A stretch of DNA of 63,035 nt, filler included, from Collodictyon triciliatum (GCA_043381765.1; 7 parts of 7 records of this genome joined end to end with filler, not necessarily neighbours in it); one strand, 5' to 3'. Counted from the first letter of the whole stretch, positions 11,561-22,718 are shown. The notes: a model not told the origin generated them from the letters alone. Made by a program: numbers and translations.

Positions 11561-14500
11561 TTAGGCAGGGATTTGGAGCAAACCTATTCGATTTATTGCG
11601 TGCATTGGCATAATTAACTTAAAAAGCTGAGTATAAACAACAAGCACATTTTTTCTTTTATAGAAACTCAAATTGAACGAAATAGTTACATCATAAACAA
11701 AATTCTCGTCATCAAATAATTCGCATGGAGGAGAAATCAGACGAACGTATGCTACTTGGTCAACTTTTTTCTCTTCGATGTTCTTTGGGGAAATAATCAT
11801 TTTTATGATTGGAAATGCTATATAAAATACGTTACCATATGAAGTACATTTCTTTCATAACAATTAAATATAAGTCAGACACATTTAGGGTACAAAAGAG
11901 AACTTTAATTAGTTTATGGCCGACCAGGATCTGACCAATATTGGCTAATAAGCACAACTGACGAGCTCTTTCGACAGCCTAATTGAATCGAGGACAACCA
12001 ATATTAAATCGAAGCAAGCAAATTTACTTATAAATAAGAAAAATAGAAAGGGCTCATACTTTTCCACTTATTTCTCGCTTTCTATTCTTTTCTGAAATTA
12101 AGCACAATCCATAGTCAATACCCTGCAATAGAATATGTAGGATAGAGAATAAGAATGACATGTCAATAATCTGTGGAATAAATACGCTTCTTTTTTTTTT
12201 TTTGAGTTCCCATGAGAAAAGACATAAGAGTATATATTACGATGGAGATTGGAAGCCCGGGGAATTGGTCAGGTTGTCCTTGCACATCTATGCCAGCACA
12301 ATTCATAACACACTGAGGCCATTCTACGTTATTAAGTTCATGCTGGACAGTTGCAGCAAATCTGTCGTGAAAAAAAAAAAGAAAGTAAAATGTAATGGTG
12401 CTTTTGCATCAAACGTAATGACATGAAATGAATAAGTAGAAAATAAGAAGTTGAAAAGAGTGGAAAAGAGCATAAGATGGAATATCGTATTTTTTGTTTT
12501 ACGAATACATTAGGTACTTGATTGCAGAAGTTGGTAATCTAAAGGATACAATACATTCGGACGACTGCCGTTTGATTTCATAGCCTTCTGTCACCCTGAT
12601 GACCTAACATTATTTATAAAGTCAACAAAACATTAGGAGATATTTTAATATACTATATTTTAGGTGATCTTATCCCTAAATTGGCCATTTTCATTTTGAA
12701 CCAAAACAAGATTACTCTTTCTATTTGCAGATACATCAGCAAGATGGATTCCAGCATGTCGTCCGGAAAACTATCCCATAACTGGTTTAGCTTCTTAATT
12801 TTAATAATCGCGACAGCCACATGAATCCTTTCACCGTATTCGTTATCAGACGATTTTGCTTCTACCGTCTATTTATTAAAAAAAAATAAATGAGTTCAAA
12901 CAAAAAAAATATAATTTTTTACAGTATCGTAGTATTATTTAACCTTATGTAATTGAGGCGATGTTTTGTTGAGTTCTCGAAAGTAATCCTGTGAACGCAT
13001 CATCAAGATAAAGTGATTAAATTCATTTTGTCGTCATTATTAAATATTTTGGCATTTTTGATTTTTTCTTTCCATTCCCATATTATCTCAAAAAAAAAAA
13101 AAGGAGTTACTACCGCTTTATATAGGATACTCACAGTAATCTTATCGATGACCGTATTAAGAGGCATCCTTTGAGCAGGAAAGAAACTAAGAAGGGATTT
13201 AGCGAGGAAGCACTCTACACCAACGCCGTTAATAAAGGATAGGTCAATCAAGTCGGGCAACTCGTTAAAATTATACGGCTTATTTCTAACGGCCATATTT
13301 TTCGTCTGGGTCTGAGTTATAATTTCCCAAAACACAGCACCAAGGCTGTATAAGTCAGAGTTTACAGAGTAAAATCCTATTTCAAGAACCTCTGGAGCAG
13401 TCCAAGTATTAGGTCTTACTGTTGGCCTTGTCTCCATACGAAGTTCAATGTCCCTTACTAAATTTCTTGAAAAAGACCAGTTGAAAATGACGCTGAAACA
13501 TATATTTTTCTTTTATGTTTTCAGAGAGCAACATATTTCTATCAAAGCCTTGTGATAAAATATGTTTTATGAAATATATATAATACCCTATCTTTGCTAC
13601 CGATTGGGCATTCACCTGTGGGTATAATGTATTTCAAATGTGAACCAATATCGGAAATAAGTTCAACTCAGAGTTCATGAATATGTGATCCCAAAATAAA
13701 AAGTACGTAGATAGAATAACTTGTAAGATTCATATGAAGTCGAGGTGGATCGCAGCAGTGAAGATACTTTAAACCTAGTTTTTCGTAATGTTTGAAAGCA
13801 TCAAACGAAATATCTAGAAAATTTCGAAAATGAACGATGATTTTAAAATATAGTATTCTTGCTTGGTGTACCGAGGGATATTTGATGCATAAATTCAATT
13901 TTTTGTATCAGATCAATATTTTCGAAATTGGAAAGATAGCTTCGCAGGGTCCCTAATTCCATTCCTTCATATATGATGCACAGCGAATTTGGCTCAAGAC
14001 ACACACCCAAATAAAGCAACACATTGGGATGCCGAAAGTTCCTTGAATGATAATTTTACTTAAGTATTATCAAAGAAAGCGAAAAAAATCAGAAAATTGA
14101 ATTCAACCATCCCAATATATTTCAAGAAATAGATGAAAGCATCATTAAATTAATAATTTATAAAACAAGGCATGAAAAATTAATGTAGAAACCTACATAA
14201 GATTTTCGCTCTTATCCTTCAGTAAACTTGAGAATTTATCGCCAACATTCTTAAACCTTATAATTGTCGCACTTTGCTGGTATGTTCTCCCCTCCAGAAC
14301 CTAAAATATGAATCAGTATGCTGTGAACGTAGATACGACATATTCTGAGGTTACCTCGTAGATCTGTTCCTCATATATCAGGGAATATATATCAATTTTT
14401 TGGGATGGTATGATTCCCAGCCGTTTTTCTGTTTTCTCATCATACAATTGGATCCGATTCTTGAACGCCTTTGTTATAGAGTATCCAAATAGGGTTGCCA

Positions 14501-17500
14501 CGCCGATAACACCGCAACAAATGAATACAATATTAATAACAGATATCCGGTGTCCTGATGCGATTTAAAGCAATACGATTATCGTTACAGTAAAAGATGA
14601 AATCAAAATCTCTAGAGAAGTGGAACAAAACTATTTCAATATCTAGCTATAATTTATTACCGGCATCACTCCGACTTTTATCATGGCATTCCTACATGTA
14701 AAATATTTAAAGACGAAGAAAAATTGTAGTTCAATTATATTATAAAAATTTAAAATTTATATTAGGAGAACAAGCCCACGTCTTCAGTGCACTGCTGACA
14801 TATCCCAGTTGTCATATTCCAAAACGAAGAACCTTCGCAATAACATCCACTCTCTTCGTCAAAAAGAGCATTCACGGGACAGTCTAAAATATGCATTTGA
14901 AAGCAACCAATTTAACATCTATGAAGAATAACACAGAGGTATTTCATTTCAAGATAGCTATTTACATTATTCCAAAAAAACTCACCCGAGTGATGAATAA
15001 GGAATCCTTGAGCCCCCATTTCAGAAGCATCAGAATCTGTCATCAAGCTAACTCTAAATCCTTTTGCATTCAAGTTTATTTTCTCTTTTCCGCAACCAAT
15101 CATACTTCTTTTATAGGATTCTTTAGAACTTTCCGCACTGATGATAATCCTAACGGTCAAAGGAGGCTTAGAAACATGTTTTACAATTTTCCTTTTCAAT
15201 TTTGTTCCCACTTTAATGATTTATAAAAGATAAAAATGGGTGATTTTAAGTGTGGAAAATATCAAACACCAAAATTCAATGTGAGTGACTTTGTTCAACC
15301 TGTCTGATTTTTTGAGACAATAATTAATTATAGCCCGATTTGAATTCATCACATCCCAAGTGCACGAGTACCCTCGAAAGTACGGCAATGGTCCGCTACC
15401 ATCATCAAATTTTTGCAAGTTTGTATCTCCAACCACAACTGTAGCTTGGTTGAACTGGCAAAAACCTTGGATAAATTTCTTCAAAGTTAGACATGTGTGG
15501 CATGGGTTATTTAAGTGTTTTAGAGCACGAATTACTAACCAGGAGTATACATCGACACCATGTTGTACATATCAGATGTTGCCCCATTAAAGAATAAAAG
15601 AGAATAGCCTTTGATCACAGGGTTGGCCCCTTCTAATGATTGTTGTCCATTGATAGAAGCATGCAGAGGCATTACATCCAGATTGCCTTGAAAAAAGAAA
15701 AAAAGGTTAATGAGTAAAGACGAACCATTAACAGCAAGAATTACTAAAGAGACCTATGAAATAGAATGAAAGAAAAGAATACTAAACCAGAATGTGAGAA
15801 CAAACCAATATCTAGAATCCAATACTGACGTAGATTTGCTTTATCTATGGTTCTAGTATATAATAATACCAATTTTTCTTGAAAAAGGATACCAGAGTAA
15901 CGATATTGTCGGCCCAACAAACGATTAGATTTCAGAGACCATGATGAGTTTCCTAGAGGAGGGAATAAAGTCACTACACTTTTGTATTTGGTGCAAGGAT
16001 CTCCATTTCGATCTGCCTACTTGGTTCAAACATCCATAGCTCGTCAAATGGAGTAAAGGAAAGGTCAATTCCGCCCACCATCCATAGCTTGTCTTGTGCA
16101 AATATCAAACTAGCTGACCATCTAGGTTTCTGGAAATCAAGAGTGTATGAATGAGGGGGAAAACTGTTGGCATGCAAGATTCAGGCGAACTTAATCAAAA
16201 ATGATGTATTATGACGCCTACTGGGCTAGGCTTTGGAAAAAATTCCTGAATGCTTCCGTCCAATATATTGATTCTAAACAAAGTTTCTGACTTTTGCGTG
16301 TACAACAACTTTGATGGAAGCTAAATCATATAAAAATTGCAATTTTTAGGGAATGTTTCATCCGTATTTTCTCTCACTTCGGCAAATTTATTTCAAAATA
16401 TTCATGCTTATAGGCAGTTATCTTTTATAACAAGAAATAACAAGGATGAAAGCAAAAGAGAATGAGAATAAGAATAAGATTGATTTTTCTTAGTTCGATT
16501 CAAAGAATGACGATGACTACGACAATGACGATGCAGACTTCGATATATACCTTTCCCCCAAAGACCCAGAATATGCTATTTACATTACAAAAGCTCATTC
16601 CGGCTCTTAAACCCAATGCGGAAGAGATTCCGGTCGATGATTCCCATATAATGCGTTTCCAGGCAACAGAATCTGCAGAGATGGAAGTTATTCTCAAACG
16701 AATAATAAATCGAATCATTACTTATTAATATTGATATAGTTTTGTTTATTTGAAAAAAAAACCCAAATCAAAACTCCATAAGAAGTCATCAATAGGTTTG
16801 TTCAAATCCTCTCCACCAAAGACATAAATATGCCGCTCATTTATTCCCATTAGCATGGAGAATCGTGGGGAGGGTTGGTTAGTGGCATTCGACTGAGAAC
16901 TGAGAAGATACCAGGAGTTTGAACCTATTATATTTACAAATTTAGGGCTCATTTTTGGAATATCTACGCAATTAATGGTATGATTTTTTCTCCCTGTTAG
17001 TGTATCATAAATCAAACCTGTTTCAAATCCCCATAAGTCATTGAGACAAACAAAGGAATTGCGCTGAGTGAGCCCGCCAAACATTATATTGTATGTATTG
17101 TTAAATGGAGTAAACCCCGCATACTTTCTCCGTATTGGCTCATAATTGAGGTTCGAATCCACCCAATCATGAACAGCTTGATGGGTTAAAAATAATAAAT
17201 AAGTAAAAGATGTCCTGGAGCATATCTCGACGCTTTTTTCTATTTCCGAGGGGCGTTTAAAAAAACTAAAAGAATACATTTACCTGAATCCCACACACGG
17301 ATTTCTGGAGTAAGAATATTATCGGGACCAACTCCTCCAAAAATAACAAGCTGCTGATCCAGAACAGAAAAAGCACTACCATATACGGGTAGGGTGGATA
17401 CCAGAGGGGTATGAGGTTCCAAGGGTACATATTTTATGACATTTATTGAATCTGTTTTTATAATTTATTAATATTAGCTACAAAAGTGTAAAAGGAAACG

Positions 17501-18006
17501 TAGAAAAATCTTGCTATATGCATTTTATTTTAGAAAAACATTCTGAATGATAAGCCCCAATGAGACAGCAAAAAAAATAAACAAATAAATTATGTGGAAA
17601 CTTTTTTGAGAATAAGAAATACCAAAGGATATCATGAGTGTATCTCCGAGTATCTGCCCTCTTCTTATACCTCCATATACCACTAAATTACTGCCAAAAA
17701 CTCCAAAAGATGCCATTTGGCGAGGTATCATAGAAATGTCAAACTTTAAACTGGATGAAAGGCAGTCGCTTGAAAGAATGGCTCCAAAATATATCCATGT
17801 GTTGTTTGCTTTAGAGAATTTAAGATTTTCATTATCGATGGGTCACAATATCAAGAATAGAAGAATCCATACAAAAATTCCAATGATACGATCGTAATTT
17901 TCTTTTCTTTTTTTAGAAAAGAAAAAGAAAAAGAAAAAGAAAAAAAGAAAAAAAGAAAAAAGAAAAAATGAAAAAAAAAGAAAAAAATGAAAAAATGAAA
18001 AAAGAA

Positions 18007-18103
<97 letters not shown>

Positions 18104-20518
18104 TTCACCAATATCGTAAGACCACAGATCTCCAATTTCAGTGAACCCATCCCATCCACCAAAGATGAAAATTGCGCTCTTATAAATTCCACCTGATCCA
18201 TATGCTATTTTGGGTGCGTGTCCTCTCCCTTCTTGCAATCCAGAATTCAAATTTCCTATGCATAAAAAGGAAAATGAAAGAGTTAAATTTTTAATAATCT
18301 ATGGGAATTTTATTTCAGTACTTGTGTCGATTATCCACGTCTTATTCGTTACTTCATTTCCCTGTGCGATGTAAAGGTAAATTAACCATTAAAATAATAA
18401 AAATAAAAAAAAAAGCTAAAAACAGGTTGGTTGGTATAAGACATATTTTTATTCAATTTTTGGCTCCATTATTATAATCTTACCTTGATTCCACCGTGTG
18501 CAATAATTTTATTTTCAAAAAGTACGCATATTCTTCCACAAACACCACCTTCAATAACGCTGCGATGCGATATCCAATTCATAGTTGTAATGTTGATAGT
18601 ATATATGTTTTCAGCGCCAGAGTATGGCACAGGATCTCTACCACCAAAAAAGAACAAAATTTCGAGGTTGCTTATCAGACATCCTCCAGGCTTCTGGAGG
18701 GGAAAGTCTCCAGTAGTATCTCTTCGAGTCATCTTCAGCCCTTTTTCAAATAGTTACGTGGTTTTTGTATCTGAGTGTGCTAAACCGTTCATATCAGGTT
18801 TGGTTCTTCCAAACTGATAATAGTTGTTGAAATATGATTCTAATCGGATAAGACTAAAAACCTTTCCTTTCCATTATATACAACGAACTATTTGAATCAA
18901 TTTTTTGATCCATGGAGAAAGGAACATCCTCAACACCACCAAATATGTATATTTTATCATCAAACGTCGCAGCAGTTCCGTCAAAAACTCCAATGGCTGA
19001 CATAACTACAAATAACATGCAAAAATGCGTTATGGAACACATCGGTTTACTCTGTATAATGTTTGATTTTTAAGGTTTTCAATACCAGTTTTTGAAGGGT
19101 TATTTGTTGATCGGGTATGATATGCTTCGTTCTCAGTACCCAGGCATGTGCCCTTTACAAAATGTTATAAAAACTCAATTTTACATATAAAATGAAGTGA
19201 ATTTGTTTAAATCTATAATTGATATTTAACATACAATCTTGGACAATCTGTCATAATTCCTGGGATGACAAGGAAGACAGATCCCCCGAAAATTTACAAA
19301 ATTTCCTTTCGGACACTGACATGATATATCTGACCATAAAAAATTGTTTTTGCATCCTACCAAATGGTCAGAATTTAAAATAGGTCATTGAATCACGATA
19401 GTACATAGTAATTATCATGCCCAGTGTGATATACGGATGATATTTACCATTGAACTTCATCGTGAATCCAGGTATCAGTTTGCTGTAAGGCGATATACTT
19501 AAAATTATCTTGATATATGTAGTGGGAAATGATAGAATTGTTTTTGGTGGAAGAAGCTCCCATCGCGTCTAAAAGTATAAAAGAGTATCGCTCATTAGAA
19601 CAGTTTGATTCTAAGCATGGATGCTTTATCATCACAGGATTGTTTCTGAAATTCAGTTTACATTTTCGAGTATTTCCCTTGTAGCATTTCCGGCTCCACT
19701 ACAGCATCCCAGCTCAGTAATAGTCAATATGCGTTGCTTGTTAAGATCCATATCGATAATCTATGATGAATCGATTATTTTCTCTTTATTTGATTCTAAG
19801 GAATCTGTGATGAATTGATATAAATAATCAAAATGATGAAATCTAGGAATGTATGATCTCATGTGTCTGAACACCTCTATCGAAGTTACTCCTTCGAGCC
19901 ACCATTCACAGTAAGTCCCAGGGAAAAGACTTTCATCTTGACTGCCGTCATTTAATACGTAAACATCATTTACTGCTATCTTAACTATCTCATGGCAGAA
20001 ATAGTGGGCTAAATGTACAATTAAAATAATCAATGATCTGGCTTTNNNNNNNNNNNNNNNNNNNNNNNNNNNNNNNNNNNNNNNNNNNNNNNNNNNNNAG
20101 AGAGAGAGAGAGAGAGAGAGAGGAAAGAGCCTAGTTTAGAATTACAATTCAGAATGAACTATTACTCAAATCCAAAAAAAATACGTTTCCCATTGATTCT
20201 TCCCCATTTTTATGCAGGTAAAATAGTTTTGAGTCAAATATGTAAGCGATCGAAGAAAATGATGTAAATATTCCAAAAACCGGATCAGGTAATCGTCGAA
20301 GAAGCGAATCTAAAGTGTTATGTGATTATAAATAATATTTTCAAATTCTATAATATATCCTGAATATGTATCTTTACCCTCAACAATTAATAATTGGCTG
20401 TATTCCAGAGATTTGGTTGTTCCTCCAAGTAGAAAACCTTTGCTATTATAAAAGAAGCTCAACCCTCTGTACCTTGCATAGAGCGCACTGTTGGGGTCTA
20501 TATTCCAGGTATCTGTGT
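11561..20518 (-). CDS. Large single-pass receptor: Kelch repeats, CUB-like and EGF/Cys-rich ectodomain, TM, TKL-like pseudokinase, class III nucleotide-cyclase-like domain (5' truncated)
   Basis: Kelch GG motifs in many exons (KIYIFGG, ILFFFGG, IFIFGGWDG, LVVYGG, LVIFGG, IYVFGG, LWVFGG, LWMVGG). CUB-like segments PGTYCEWWLEG (~19900) and DGSGPLPYFRGYSCTWDV..SLMTDSD..GF (~15400-14990). Cys-rich CYCEGS..ICQQC (~14850). TM ISVINIVFICCGVIGVATLFGYSI (~14545-14475). Kinase fold FRHPNVLLYLGVC, GLKYLH, WTAPEVL, SDLYSLGAVFWEIIT. Cyclase fold LWDSFPDDM, GYEIK, VQHELNNVEWP, GLPISIGIDYG, ANIGQILV. Stop at 11561. Confidence 0.85.
18008..18100. repeat. (TAA)n intronic microsatellite (similar tracts at 31654-31748, 33858-33953, 47914-48012)
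   Basis: Direct inspection. Confidence 0.98.
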
Positions 20519-20976
20519 CTAAAGCAGTGAAAAAAAAAAAAAAAAAAAAAATATAATAAAAAAAATTTTTTTTTTTTTTAATTATTTTTTNNNNNNNNNN
20601 NNNNNNNNNNNNNNNNNNNNNNNNNNNNNNNNNNTTAATTAATTAANNNNNNNNNNNNNNNNNNNNNNNNNNNNNNNNNNNNNNNNNNNNCAAAAACAAA
20701 AACAAAAACAAAAACAAAAACAAAAACAAAAACAAAAACAAAAACAAAAACAAAAACAAAAACAAAAACAAAAACAAAAACAAAACATAGAAAAACAAAG
20801 AAAAACATAACAAACAAAACAGAACAAAGTTCAAGAGCCTAAACTAAAAAACATAACAAAGGTCGAGAGTCAAAACAAAGACACAAAACAAACCAAAGCA
20901 AGACACAACAAAGCCAAAAAAATGCATAGAATACAACACAGGATTAAAAAGGGTCGTTAAAACAGATCGACCCACC

Positions 20977-22718
20977 ATGGCCGGAAAGACTGCAGAAGAG
21001 CTGACCAAGGAGCTCCTTGCACTGGATCCCAACTTCTCACCAGGCCGCGACGCAGCGAGCCTCGAACAGAGCACAAAGCTGTCTGTCTCCTTCAACAAGA
21101 TCAGCGTCTTCCCAGCGGGCATTCTGCTCCTGACGCAACTCCGCGACCTAACCATCTACAAAACTCTCCTGGAGCAGCTGCCTGCAGACATCGCTGTGCT
21201 GAACCTGCTGAAGGAGCTGGACTTGAGCTTCAACAAGCTGATGCAGCTCCCTGCGGAGCTCTCTCTCCTCACTGATCTGGAGCGCCTCGATGTCTACGAC
21301 AACTCGCTGCCTTCCTTGCCCGATGGCTTTTCGCTCCTCACACGCCTCAGTGTCCTCATCGCCTCCAAAAACAGCATCACCAGCCTGTGCGACACCTTCT
21401 TTGCCTGCCCCAACCTTGTGCGACTCGAGCTGCACGACAACAAACTCACCAGCCTCCCTCCCAGCATCGCGCTTCTCACCCGCGTCACGCGACTCTTTCT
21501 CGAGAGAAACTCCCTCTCTGAGCTGCCCTCGCAATTCGCAGCCTTTGCCAACGCGAAAGTCATCGCCCTCAACGGCAACCAACTCTCTGCCTTGCCCGAC
21601 TCCTTCTCGGCTCTCTCGTCTGTCTCTATGCTCAATCTCGACGACAATCAGCTCTCCACACTGCCAGAGTCATTCTCGGCCCTGAAAAGTCTCGAGAGAC
21701 TGCTACTGAACAACAATCGCCTGACTGGGCTGCCAATCGAGGTCTCTGGCCTTACCAAGGTCACCCGCCTCGAGCTCATTGACAACTCTTTCTCCGGCCC
21801 GCTACCGAACGAGCTGTCTGCCTTGACAAAGCTCAAGGTTTTCAGCGTGAATGGGACTGCAGCAGAGCACATTCCAGCGGGTCTGTCAAAGGCCTTTGCC
21901 GCAGGCGCTCTCATAGAGATTGCTGCGCTGAATCCAGAGTTTGGGCCCAGTGACGACCTCTTTGAAGCAACTTCACTCCGCTTGGAAAACAAAGGCCTTA
22001 CAAGCATCCCATCGGTCGTGGCGAATATCGCCAACCTTAAAAGGCTTTATCTTGAAGGAAACAAGCTTACGGCGCTGCCAAGCACCCTGTCTCTACTGAC
22101 CAAGCTCGAGTGGCTGAATATCGACGGCAATCAGTTCTCGGAGCTCCCAGAAGAGATCTCGGCCCTCAAGAATCTGTGCCTGCTCTATGCCAGAAACAAT
22201 ATACTCGCATCTATCTCTGGTTCTGTCTCTGCCTTGGGTGAGCTCAATGGGCTCTACCTGGACGGAAATCAGCTGTCCACCCTGCCCTCGGGAATCACTG
22301 GCCTGACAAACCTGGTGGAGCTGACTCTCGCAGCAAACAAGCTGTCTACTTTACCCTCGGAAGTCTCCTCTCTCACAGCCATTACAGAAATCACATTGCA
22401 ATCCAACCCTGTAAGAAGAACCAAATATATATGCCTTATGTTGTCCATTTCAACTGGGCGTAGAGTGGTGAAAACTGACCAGACTTTTATTTTTTTCCCC
22501 CTCTCCTTTTGTTTTGTTCTCTCTTATTACACGGAGCATAGATGGAATCTCTCCCCATTGAAATGACCAATCTCCGTCAACTGGAGAAGCTCTCCATCAA
22601 AGACGAAGGCGAACTCCACATCAAACGAGCACCCCGTGGAATTACAGCCCTGCCTTGCTGGAGAAACTCCAACCAAAAGGACTTCGAGCTGCTGCTTTCC
22701 CTGTCGCTCTACGAATAA
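20977..22718 (+). CDS. Cytosolic leucine-rich-repeat protein (23-residue LxxLP-type LRRs), 2 exons
   Basis: ORF 20977 has about 19 LxxLxLxxNxLxxLP repeats. Donor gtaaga at 22411; the phase-0 second exon from ~22542 reads MESLPIEMTNLRQLEKLSI...LSLYE-TAA (22716-22718). Confidence 0.9.

Follow-up and report, generated by a model that had tools for sequence, protein, structure and literature searches.

A gene of Collodictyon triciliatum, read here from a stretch of DNA of 63,035 nucleotides (GCA_043381765.1; below, "the window"), appears to encode a receptor in which two enzyme folds have lost their catalytic residues. The gene lies on the minus strand at 11561..20521, as far as its contig (11171-20590) reaches. 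From the outside inward, the protein presents an attractin-like ectodomain, one transmembrane helix, a TKL-type kinase fold (K1), and a class III cyclase-homology domain (CHD), with K1 and the CHD both predicted to be inactive. By sequence similarity, it belongs to the cyclase kinases already described from Amoebozoa, and is an unusual member of that family rather than a new kind of receptor.

The explanation that we favor, with modest confidence, is that the gene is under structural constraint and encodes a single-pass cyclase-kinase receptor, within a subgroup having attractin-like ectodomains, and that its dead K1 and CHD serve regulatory and pairing roles.

One gene from 35 exons

To obtain the gene model, the minus strand was read in three frames, and at each of 34 junctions the pairs of GT..AG sites that keep the frame were listed. 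Canonical GT-AG sites in matching phase exist at all of them, and mostly one solution is clearly the best. The resulting chain of 35 exons and 34 introns gives a coding sequence of 5087 nucleotides, or 1694 codons, with no internal stop. The content of guanine plus cytosine (GC) is 0.388 in the exons versus 0.271 in the introns, which are 54-300 nucleotides long (median 104). An assembly gap of 53 N sits within intron 2 (20046-20098, no strand), and intron 11, the longest (300 nucleotides; 17900-18100), carries a (TTA)n microsatellite and T-rich runs. Pfam finds nothing in the five longest open reading frames (ORFs) of the plus strand over the gene, nor in two minus-strand ORFs 3' of its stop. 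Thus, the multi-exon gene that a preliminary description of this DNA had placed here, with a frame open across its stitched exons, is recovered.

As far as sequence can speak, the best evidence that the exon chain is real is the homology that emerges after splicing. Relatives were gathered from matches to the largest kinase exon, together with relatives of one such match, and the spliced protein was compared with these. Residues 23-1653 of the model align collinearly with residues 588-2163 of the protein P0163 (24.5% identity, E 4.8e-128). Single collinear alignments of about 1500-1630 residues are found to nine Kelch-type proteins having 2200-2490 residues, with E from 1e-70 to 5e-128, at an identity to every relative of only 22-25%. 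These relatives come from transcriptome assemblies, and their source labels read "ORF type: complete".

The preliminary description had asked whether the ectodomain, the kinase, and the cyclase might belong to separate genes. They are in one gene, because the model is collinear with full-length, transcript-derived proteins having the same order of parts. At the level of sequence, therefore, ectodomain, transmembrane helix, K1, and CHD are shown to form one collinear reading frame.

The ends of the gene are another matter. An acceptor at 20521, only 70 nucleotides from where the contig ends (20590), is followed by the first exon, whose opening two bases belong to a split codon; the gene is open on its 5' side, and its 5' part has been cut off. 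The relatives have about 570-680 further N-terminal residues upstream of this point. At the other end lies exon 35 (11561..11817, minus strand) with its TAA stop (11561-11563). Here, the coordinates first proposed for the gene are confirmed, while its extent is not: the 5' end is cut at the contig edge and the 3' end has no homology support.

An attractin-like ectodomain

The part of the ectodomain that lies on the contig has about 1100 residues, arranged in Kelch, CUB-like, and Cys-rich modules, all encoded on the minus strand. Exons 1-2 (20166..20521) encode Kelch-like repeats truncated at their N-terminal end. Exons 3-5 (19448..20008) encode CUB-like module 1, and exons 6-7 (19086..19356) an EGF-like Cys-rich module, recognized by a pattern of Cys residues common to nine relatives. 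Next come Kelch or attractin-type beta-propeller repeats (exons 8-19, 15540..19005), a membrane-proximal CUB-like module 2 (exons 20-21, 14986..15465), and a Cys-rich stalk (exons 22-23, 14661..14883). The transmembrane helix (14475..14546, minus strand), read from the sequence within exon 24 (14355-14554), is single; its 24 hydrophobic residues are followed by basic residues, as in a stop-transfer signal.

The propellers are seen both in Pfam matches to ORF pieces and in collinearity with the Kelch regions of the relatives. Kelch-type families match 7 of 24 raw ORF pieces, and Beta-prop_ATRN-LZTR1, which is strong in the relatives, matches one exon (E 3.8e-8); all of these matches fall under the gathering cut-offs for single pieces. 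A word-based search using a 177-residue Kelch ORF against longer proteins gave no matches.

The CUB-like modules required structural evidence. Pfam CUB is matched by none of the 24 ORF pieces, the 15 exact exons, or three relatives (E<=1), and a profile built from eight relatives found five matches among PDB sequences, all with E>0.28 and none of them CUB. The counterpart of module 1 in P0163, modeled by AlphaFold from the family alignment, has a predicted local distance difference test (pLDDT) score of 73 and a predicted template modeling (pTM) score of 0.72. The structures that it matches best are Kremen, enteropeptidase, TSG-6 CUB_C, MASP-1 CUB2, and C1r CUB2; with CUB structures, E runs from 5.5e-5 to 1e-3 and the template modeling (TM) score is 0.55-0.67. 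Exons 3-5 and 20-21 both align to the CUB-like modules of the relatives, and both keep the conserved Cys, DGS, Tyr, C-x-W, and GF. In module 1, the alignment has the C, DGS, Y, C-x-W, C, and GF positions of the family all retained. Atlas look-alikes of the P0138 counterpart of module 2 are clusters of CUB domains (score 0.81), which may be taken as a lead only. A motif of the form "DGSG..Y..C.W" is what we presume to be a likeness to the CUB domain of attractin.

The ectodomains of attractin and MEGF8 may be matched by this one, in which Kelch propellers appear together with EGF-like modules and a CUB-like fold, with the reservation that the CUB fold was modeled, at moderate confidence, for the homologous module of a relative, and that Pfam finds no CUB match. 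Attractin and MEGF8, of course, have a short conserved cytoplasmic tail without enzyme folds. The tail of the protein described here, in contrast, consists of a kinase fold followed by a cyclase fold. The domain order set out in the preliminary description (a Kelch, CUB-like, and Cys-rich ectodomain, one transmembrane helix, a TKL-type kinase, and a class III cyclase) is therefore borne out by Pfam, by profiles, by the sequence itself, and by the model of a relative.

Two enzyme folds predicted to be inactive

The CHD (exons 30-34, 11894..12868, minus strand) is not seen in single pieces. Pfam cyclase families match none of the 24 ORF pieces and none of the 15 exact exons, and a search of PDB sequences with the first cyclase exon gave no matches. 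The spliced C-terminus, in contrast, scores 65.2 bits against a cyclase profile made from nine relatives in each of which Pfam finds Guanylate_cyc; among 2000 shuffled sequences, the highest score is 7.0. The cyclase fold, therefore, becomes visible only after splicing.

Class III cyclases are obligate dimers, in which the active site is assembled from a pair of Asp residues on one chain and an Asn and an Arg on the other. In the CHD, the first metal-binding Asp is replaced by Lys (12800-12802) and the second by Ser (12559-12561). The transition-state Asn is replaced by Glu (11970-11972) and the Arg by Gln (11958-11960). Because both sets of residues have been replaced, this CHD is predicted to be unable to complete a site in any dimer.

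Such losses are found elsewhere in the family. Of the 16 relatives, 8 no longer have the first metal Asp, seven of these being among the 11 that are Kelch-type. All four catalytic residues are lost in three of the 16 (P0163, P0137, and P0138). These three are Kelch-type proteins with intact K1 motifs, and P0163 is the best match of the gene described here. On these alignments, it is a Kelch-type subgroup that is marked by a dead cyclase fold, and the loss of cyclase catalysis seems to have been recurrent in that branch.

K1 (exons 25-28, 13135..14300, minus strand) is joined to the CHD by a 15-residue linker (exon 29, 12944..12988, minus strand). Its TKL-type fold is identified by Pfam PK_Tyr_Ser-Thr, which matches 2 of 24 ORF pieces (E 4e-9 and 2e-8), and by a family K1 profile from the 16 relatives, against which the spliced K1 scores 102 bits. 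When its motifs are tabulated, the glycine loop has been lost and the APE motif kept. The position of the beta3 Lys is occupied by Ile or Arg, depending on the alignment, with a Lys two residues further on. HRD has become HMN (13728-13736), and DFG is read as DIE in one alignment and as RNL in another. The relatives present a different picture: all 16 have the beta3 Lys, the HRD Asp, DFG, and APE, and all but one of them have the glycine loop. Among the 16 aligned relatives, then, a dead K1 is, by sequence, unique to this gene.

Some proteins that look like pseudokinases do, of course, keep activity. It might be argued on these general grounds that one or both folds work by a non-canonical mechanism, perhaps using the Asp of DIE, which falls at DFG in one of the alignments, and the Lys that lies two residues past the beta3 position. 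This we regard as very unlikely, given that all four metal-binding and transition-state residues have been replaced in the cyclase fold, and that the glycine loop and the HRD Asp are missing from K1 together.

The preliminary description had therefore correctly noted that catalytic residues are replaced in both folds, as alignment with the 16 relatives now attests. Its further suggestion, that having both domains dead is a novelty, survives in part. The dead K1 is the unique part; a dead cyclase is present in three of the relatives, which are public proteins.

A described family with an unusual member

The genome of Acanthamoeba encodes 67 nucleotidyl cyclases, each described as having an extracellular receptor domain, one transmembrane helix, and a cyclase placed between two Ser/Thr kinases; the same layout is found in giant viruses that infect amoebae (PMC4053784). 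Such proteins have been named "cyclase kinases". Physarum polycephalum has 43 (PMC4758236), Acanthamoeba castellanii 66-67 (PMC4053784, PMC4758236), and Protostelium is reported to have none (PMC5804921).

The gene described here has the features of this family as far as its contig allows them to be seen: an extracellular sensor, a single transmembrane helix, and, beyond the helix, a kinase fold of TKL type followed by a class III cyclase fold, with collinear and significant similarity over more than 1500 residues. It differs in that its K1 has lost catalytic motifs that all 16 relatives keep, in that its CHD is fully dead, as in only three of the 16, and in that a second kinase (K2), which all 16 aligned relatives have or begin, is not found for it within the window.

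By Pfam, the relatives carry Kelch or attractin-type propellers, a kinase, in most cases Guanylate_cyc, and a second kinase. Those that could be named come from Pelomyxa, Balamuthia, Acanthamoeba, a Physarum transcript, Medusavirus, and Pandoravirus, and the label "amoebozoan" as used here is based solely on the taxa of these named relatives. The members from Pelomyxa, Balamuthia, and the Physarum transcript are weaker matches than are the Kelch-type members. The latter are found among public transcriptome proteins (P0163, P0160, P0137, P0138, P0061, P0130-P0135, and P0115). Their order of modules is also that of the gene described here: Kelch, CUB-like, EGF-like, Kelch propellers, CUB-like, Cys-rich stalk, transmembrane helix, kinase, and cyclase fold. 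Unlike it, they have each kept K1 intact, and in each a second kinase is present or begins.

The order in which the dead kinase precedes the cyclase also calls animals to mind. Animal receptor guanylyl cyclases have a pseudokinase, the "kinase-homology domain", that is followed by an active cyclase. Like them, the protein described here is single-pass, with a dead membrane-proximal kinase fold, a short linker, and a class III cyclase fold. By analogy, its K1, which keeps APE and much of the C-lobe, resembles the kinase-homology domain in position and in state. Unlike them, it has a Kelch and CUB-like ectodomain; Pfam ANF_receptor matches no ORF piece and no exon. Further, its CHD is dead where the animal cyclase is active, and its best matches place the cyclase fold with the amoebal cyclase-kinase type, making it no member of the animal family.

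These resemblances might lead one to propose a relative of the animal receptor guanylyl cyclases or, as did the preliminary description, a wholly uncharacterised receptor family. For the second, one could point out that the papers on the genomes of Acanthamoeba and Physarum do not use the word "Kelch" in their main text (PMC4053784, PMC4758236). Nevertheless, the best kinase-cyclase matches are all kinase-cyclase-kinase proteins of Amoebozoa and of their giant viruses, and public protein sets already include eleven Kelch-type relatives. A literature search of titles and abstracts returned, among the matches listed, no publication on Kelch-type cyclase kinases. The missing ANF-receptor ectodomain speaks against the animal connection. 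Either proposal is therefore most improbable, and the claim of an uncharacterised family gives way to membership in the described cyclase kinases (PMC4053784, PMC4758236, PMC5804921). The other half of that earlier interpretation, a non-catalytic receptor module, stays plausible, while the new family does not, the protein being collinear with cyclase kinases.

Constraint or decay

To ask how the protein has been treated by selection, columns nearly invariant among the relatives were used as a proxy, and those kept by the protein described here were counted. The ectodomain keeps 79 of 97 such columns (81%), including 18 of 20 Cys residues. The relatives, which are expressed, keep 61-95%. This retention therefore speaks against an old decay. 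From the counted columns, the ectodomain looks constrained, and the two enzyme folds look relaxed or re-purposed. Close relatives were also sought in metagenomes; a first scan found none, and a second found two loci matching over only 18 and 29 residues.

Several observations weigh against a constrained receptor. K1 keeps 31 of 57 family-conserved columns, where the 16 relatives keep 83-100%. The CHD keeps 20 of 40, similar to the relatives with dead cyclases, which keep 35-55%. Losses of this kind in K1 and the CHD are also those expected from relaxed selection on a dying copy. The largest kinase exon, compared with 1.84 billion representative proteins, gave 129 matches, none spanning the whole exon. 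Exon 35 has no profile support, and 60 stop-free variants of the 3' end, set against the C-terminal cyclase profile of the family, score about 0 bits throughout. No K2 is found in the whole window by tblastn with four relatives. Last, dimerization, the binding of ATP, and a partner enter the favored explanation by inference only.

Intron 27 (13510..13706, minus strand) adds a more specific concern. Within it, the stretch 13616-13667 (minus strand) resembles the beta8-DFG segment of the family, and an in-frame TGA (13668-13670), at the position where the relatives have Trp, precedes that DFG-like stretch. The K1 profile fits equally well in either case, scoring 101.8 bits if the DFG-like stretch is taken as exon and 102.3 bits with the stop-free model. 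The stretch may be a disabled part of a former exon, or it may be an alternative exon. A tandem duplication of the DFG segment, comparing intron 27 with exon 28, was considered and rejected; the DNA similarity score was 16, against a mean of 15.7 for shuffled sequences.

Taken together, these observations could be explained if the gene were an unprocessed pseudogene, one copy in decay within a receptor family that has been massively amplified. Where a family has 43-67 members per genome, as this one does in two amoebae (PMC4758236), one should expect some of them to be dead. On this account, the loss of all catalytic motifs from K1, its reduced set of conserved columns, the TGA in place of Trp, the failure to find K2 in the window, and the last exon without profile support would be marks of decay. 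Decay would, however, have to be recent, or the splicing of the model would have to be routed around the damage. The frame runs through 1694 codons and 35 exons without a stop, with a canonical, in-phase site at every junction. The splice variant that avoids the TGA matches the K1 profile as well as does the variant that reads through. What has been lost is not evenly spread but gathered in the two enzyme folds, and the ectodomain retains its columns and Cys residues within the range of expressed relatives. A pseudogene is accordingly doubtful, if still a serious competitor.

A possible second kinase

In all 16 aligned relatives, K2 is present or begins 60-100 residues after the CHD. The contig ends 390 nucleotides past the modeled stop, in a microsatellite. 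The statement that both enzymatic domains are dead is thus valid for the part of the protein on the contig, and not necessarily for the whole. The protein would not be enzymatically dead as a whole if a K2 lies beyond the contig.

This suggests a receptor kinase that is active through an intact K2, with the dead K1 and CHD being regulatory or dimerizing. Such a proposal overlaps with the favored explanation, differing in the output. It draws on P0137 and P0138, relatives with a fully dead CHD that keep their K2 motifs where the transcript is complete, and on the unsupported last exon, which might conceal an unseen splice donor. It must contend with a modeled frame that closes with TAA, and with the tblastn search, which found no second kinase in the window. 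A profile of the K2 start, applied to three frames of the 390 nucleotides downstream of the stop, does no better than 900 shuffled sequences; a match to the K2 start that had been seen there by eye was discarded, since its score with this profile is at the level of the shuffles. We regard an active K2 as a tentative possibility, ahead of the others as a competitor to the favored explanation.

How the receptor might work

In the explanation favored here, of the constrained receptor with inactive K1 and CHD, a non-catalytic role as scaffold or partner is the most reasonable reading of the protein. The CHD would be retained as a dimerizing spacer rather than as an enzyme. Its role is most likely dimerization and spacing, given that the relatives have retained dead cyclase folds between kinases that are intact. 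K1 would by now be a pseudokinase with a regulatory role, for which the kinase-homology domain of the animal receptor guanylyl cyclases offers a comparison. Signaling would then proceed by pairing, whether between two copies of the protein or between it and active paralogues. In a mixed dimer of the latter kind, neither cyclase site would be complete, and the protein would act as a brake or a decoy. If a working second kinase follows beyond the contig, that kinase would be the output.

A stronger form of this hypothesis can be stated. Here, a doubly dead cyclase kinase would have been kept by selection precisely as a poison or decoy co-receptor. Its ectodomain would bind ligand, its CHD would disable the sites shared with active paralogues, and its allosteric pseudokinase would have reinvented in amoebae the logic of the kinase-homology domain. 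At present, we consider this form unlikely.

The surrounding contigs

The window is a chain of seven contigs, cut by six identical spacers (44 N, TTAATTAATTAA, 44 N) at 11071-11170, 20591-20690, 31749-31848, 45424-45523, 56567-56666, and 60395-60494. Because these separate the contigs, the window does not fix their order, orientation, or adjacency, and since it consists of separate contigs, genes on the others give no evidence about the neighborhood of the receptor gene. That gene is the sole finding on its own contig, where GC is about 33-34%. Microsatellites resembling that of intron 11 are also present at the ends of contigs, and are probably the reason that the assembly is fragmented.

The first contig varies in GC from 33% to 58%. 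It has a 455-codon ORF (8473-9837, minus strand) in a 58% GC stretch, with a weak match to a GNAT acetyltransferase at its C-terminal end (E 1.5e-5). On the contig that follows that of the receptor gene, an intronless, 569-codon ORF having leucine-rich repeats (20857-22566, plus strand; LRR_8, E 3e-39) lies in a stretch with 41-45% GC in 2-kilobase windows, versus about 33% on the contig of the receptor gene.

Further along, the transmembrane region of an ABC transporter (ABC_membrane, E 1.7e-30) is encoded at 32369-33070 and 34674-35447 (both plus strand), probably by a single multi-exon gene that is broken by a gap of 432 N at 33954-34385. An exon of the ribosome-biogenesis protein NSA2 lies at 39746-40150 (minus strand); its best match has 76% identity, proteins of 74-237 residues having been searched. 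The last contig (60495-63035) is about 2.5 kilobases of simple repeats with several open frames, rich in SQ, PN, and SR. The GC skew at 60-62 kilobases (+0.61) is the strongest in the window.

Implications for the cyclase kinases

Few receptor families in free-living amoebae are as large as the cyclase kinases. In the available text of the papers that describe them, neither a ligand nor a tested mechanism is given (PMC4053784, PMC4758236, PMC5804921). Within the Kelch-type branch, cyclase catalysis has repeatedly been lost while the flanking kinases remain intact. This suggests that the conserved job of the cyclase fold in that branch is pairing, and not the synthesis of cyclic AMP or cyclic GMP.

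If the gene described here is a dying paralogue, it is, of course, ordinary. If it is expressed, it would parallel the animal receptor guanylyl cyclases, and would be a natural test case for non-catalytic signaling, or for dominant-negative regulation, in the cyclase kinases.

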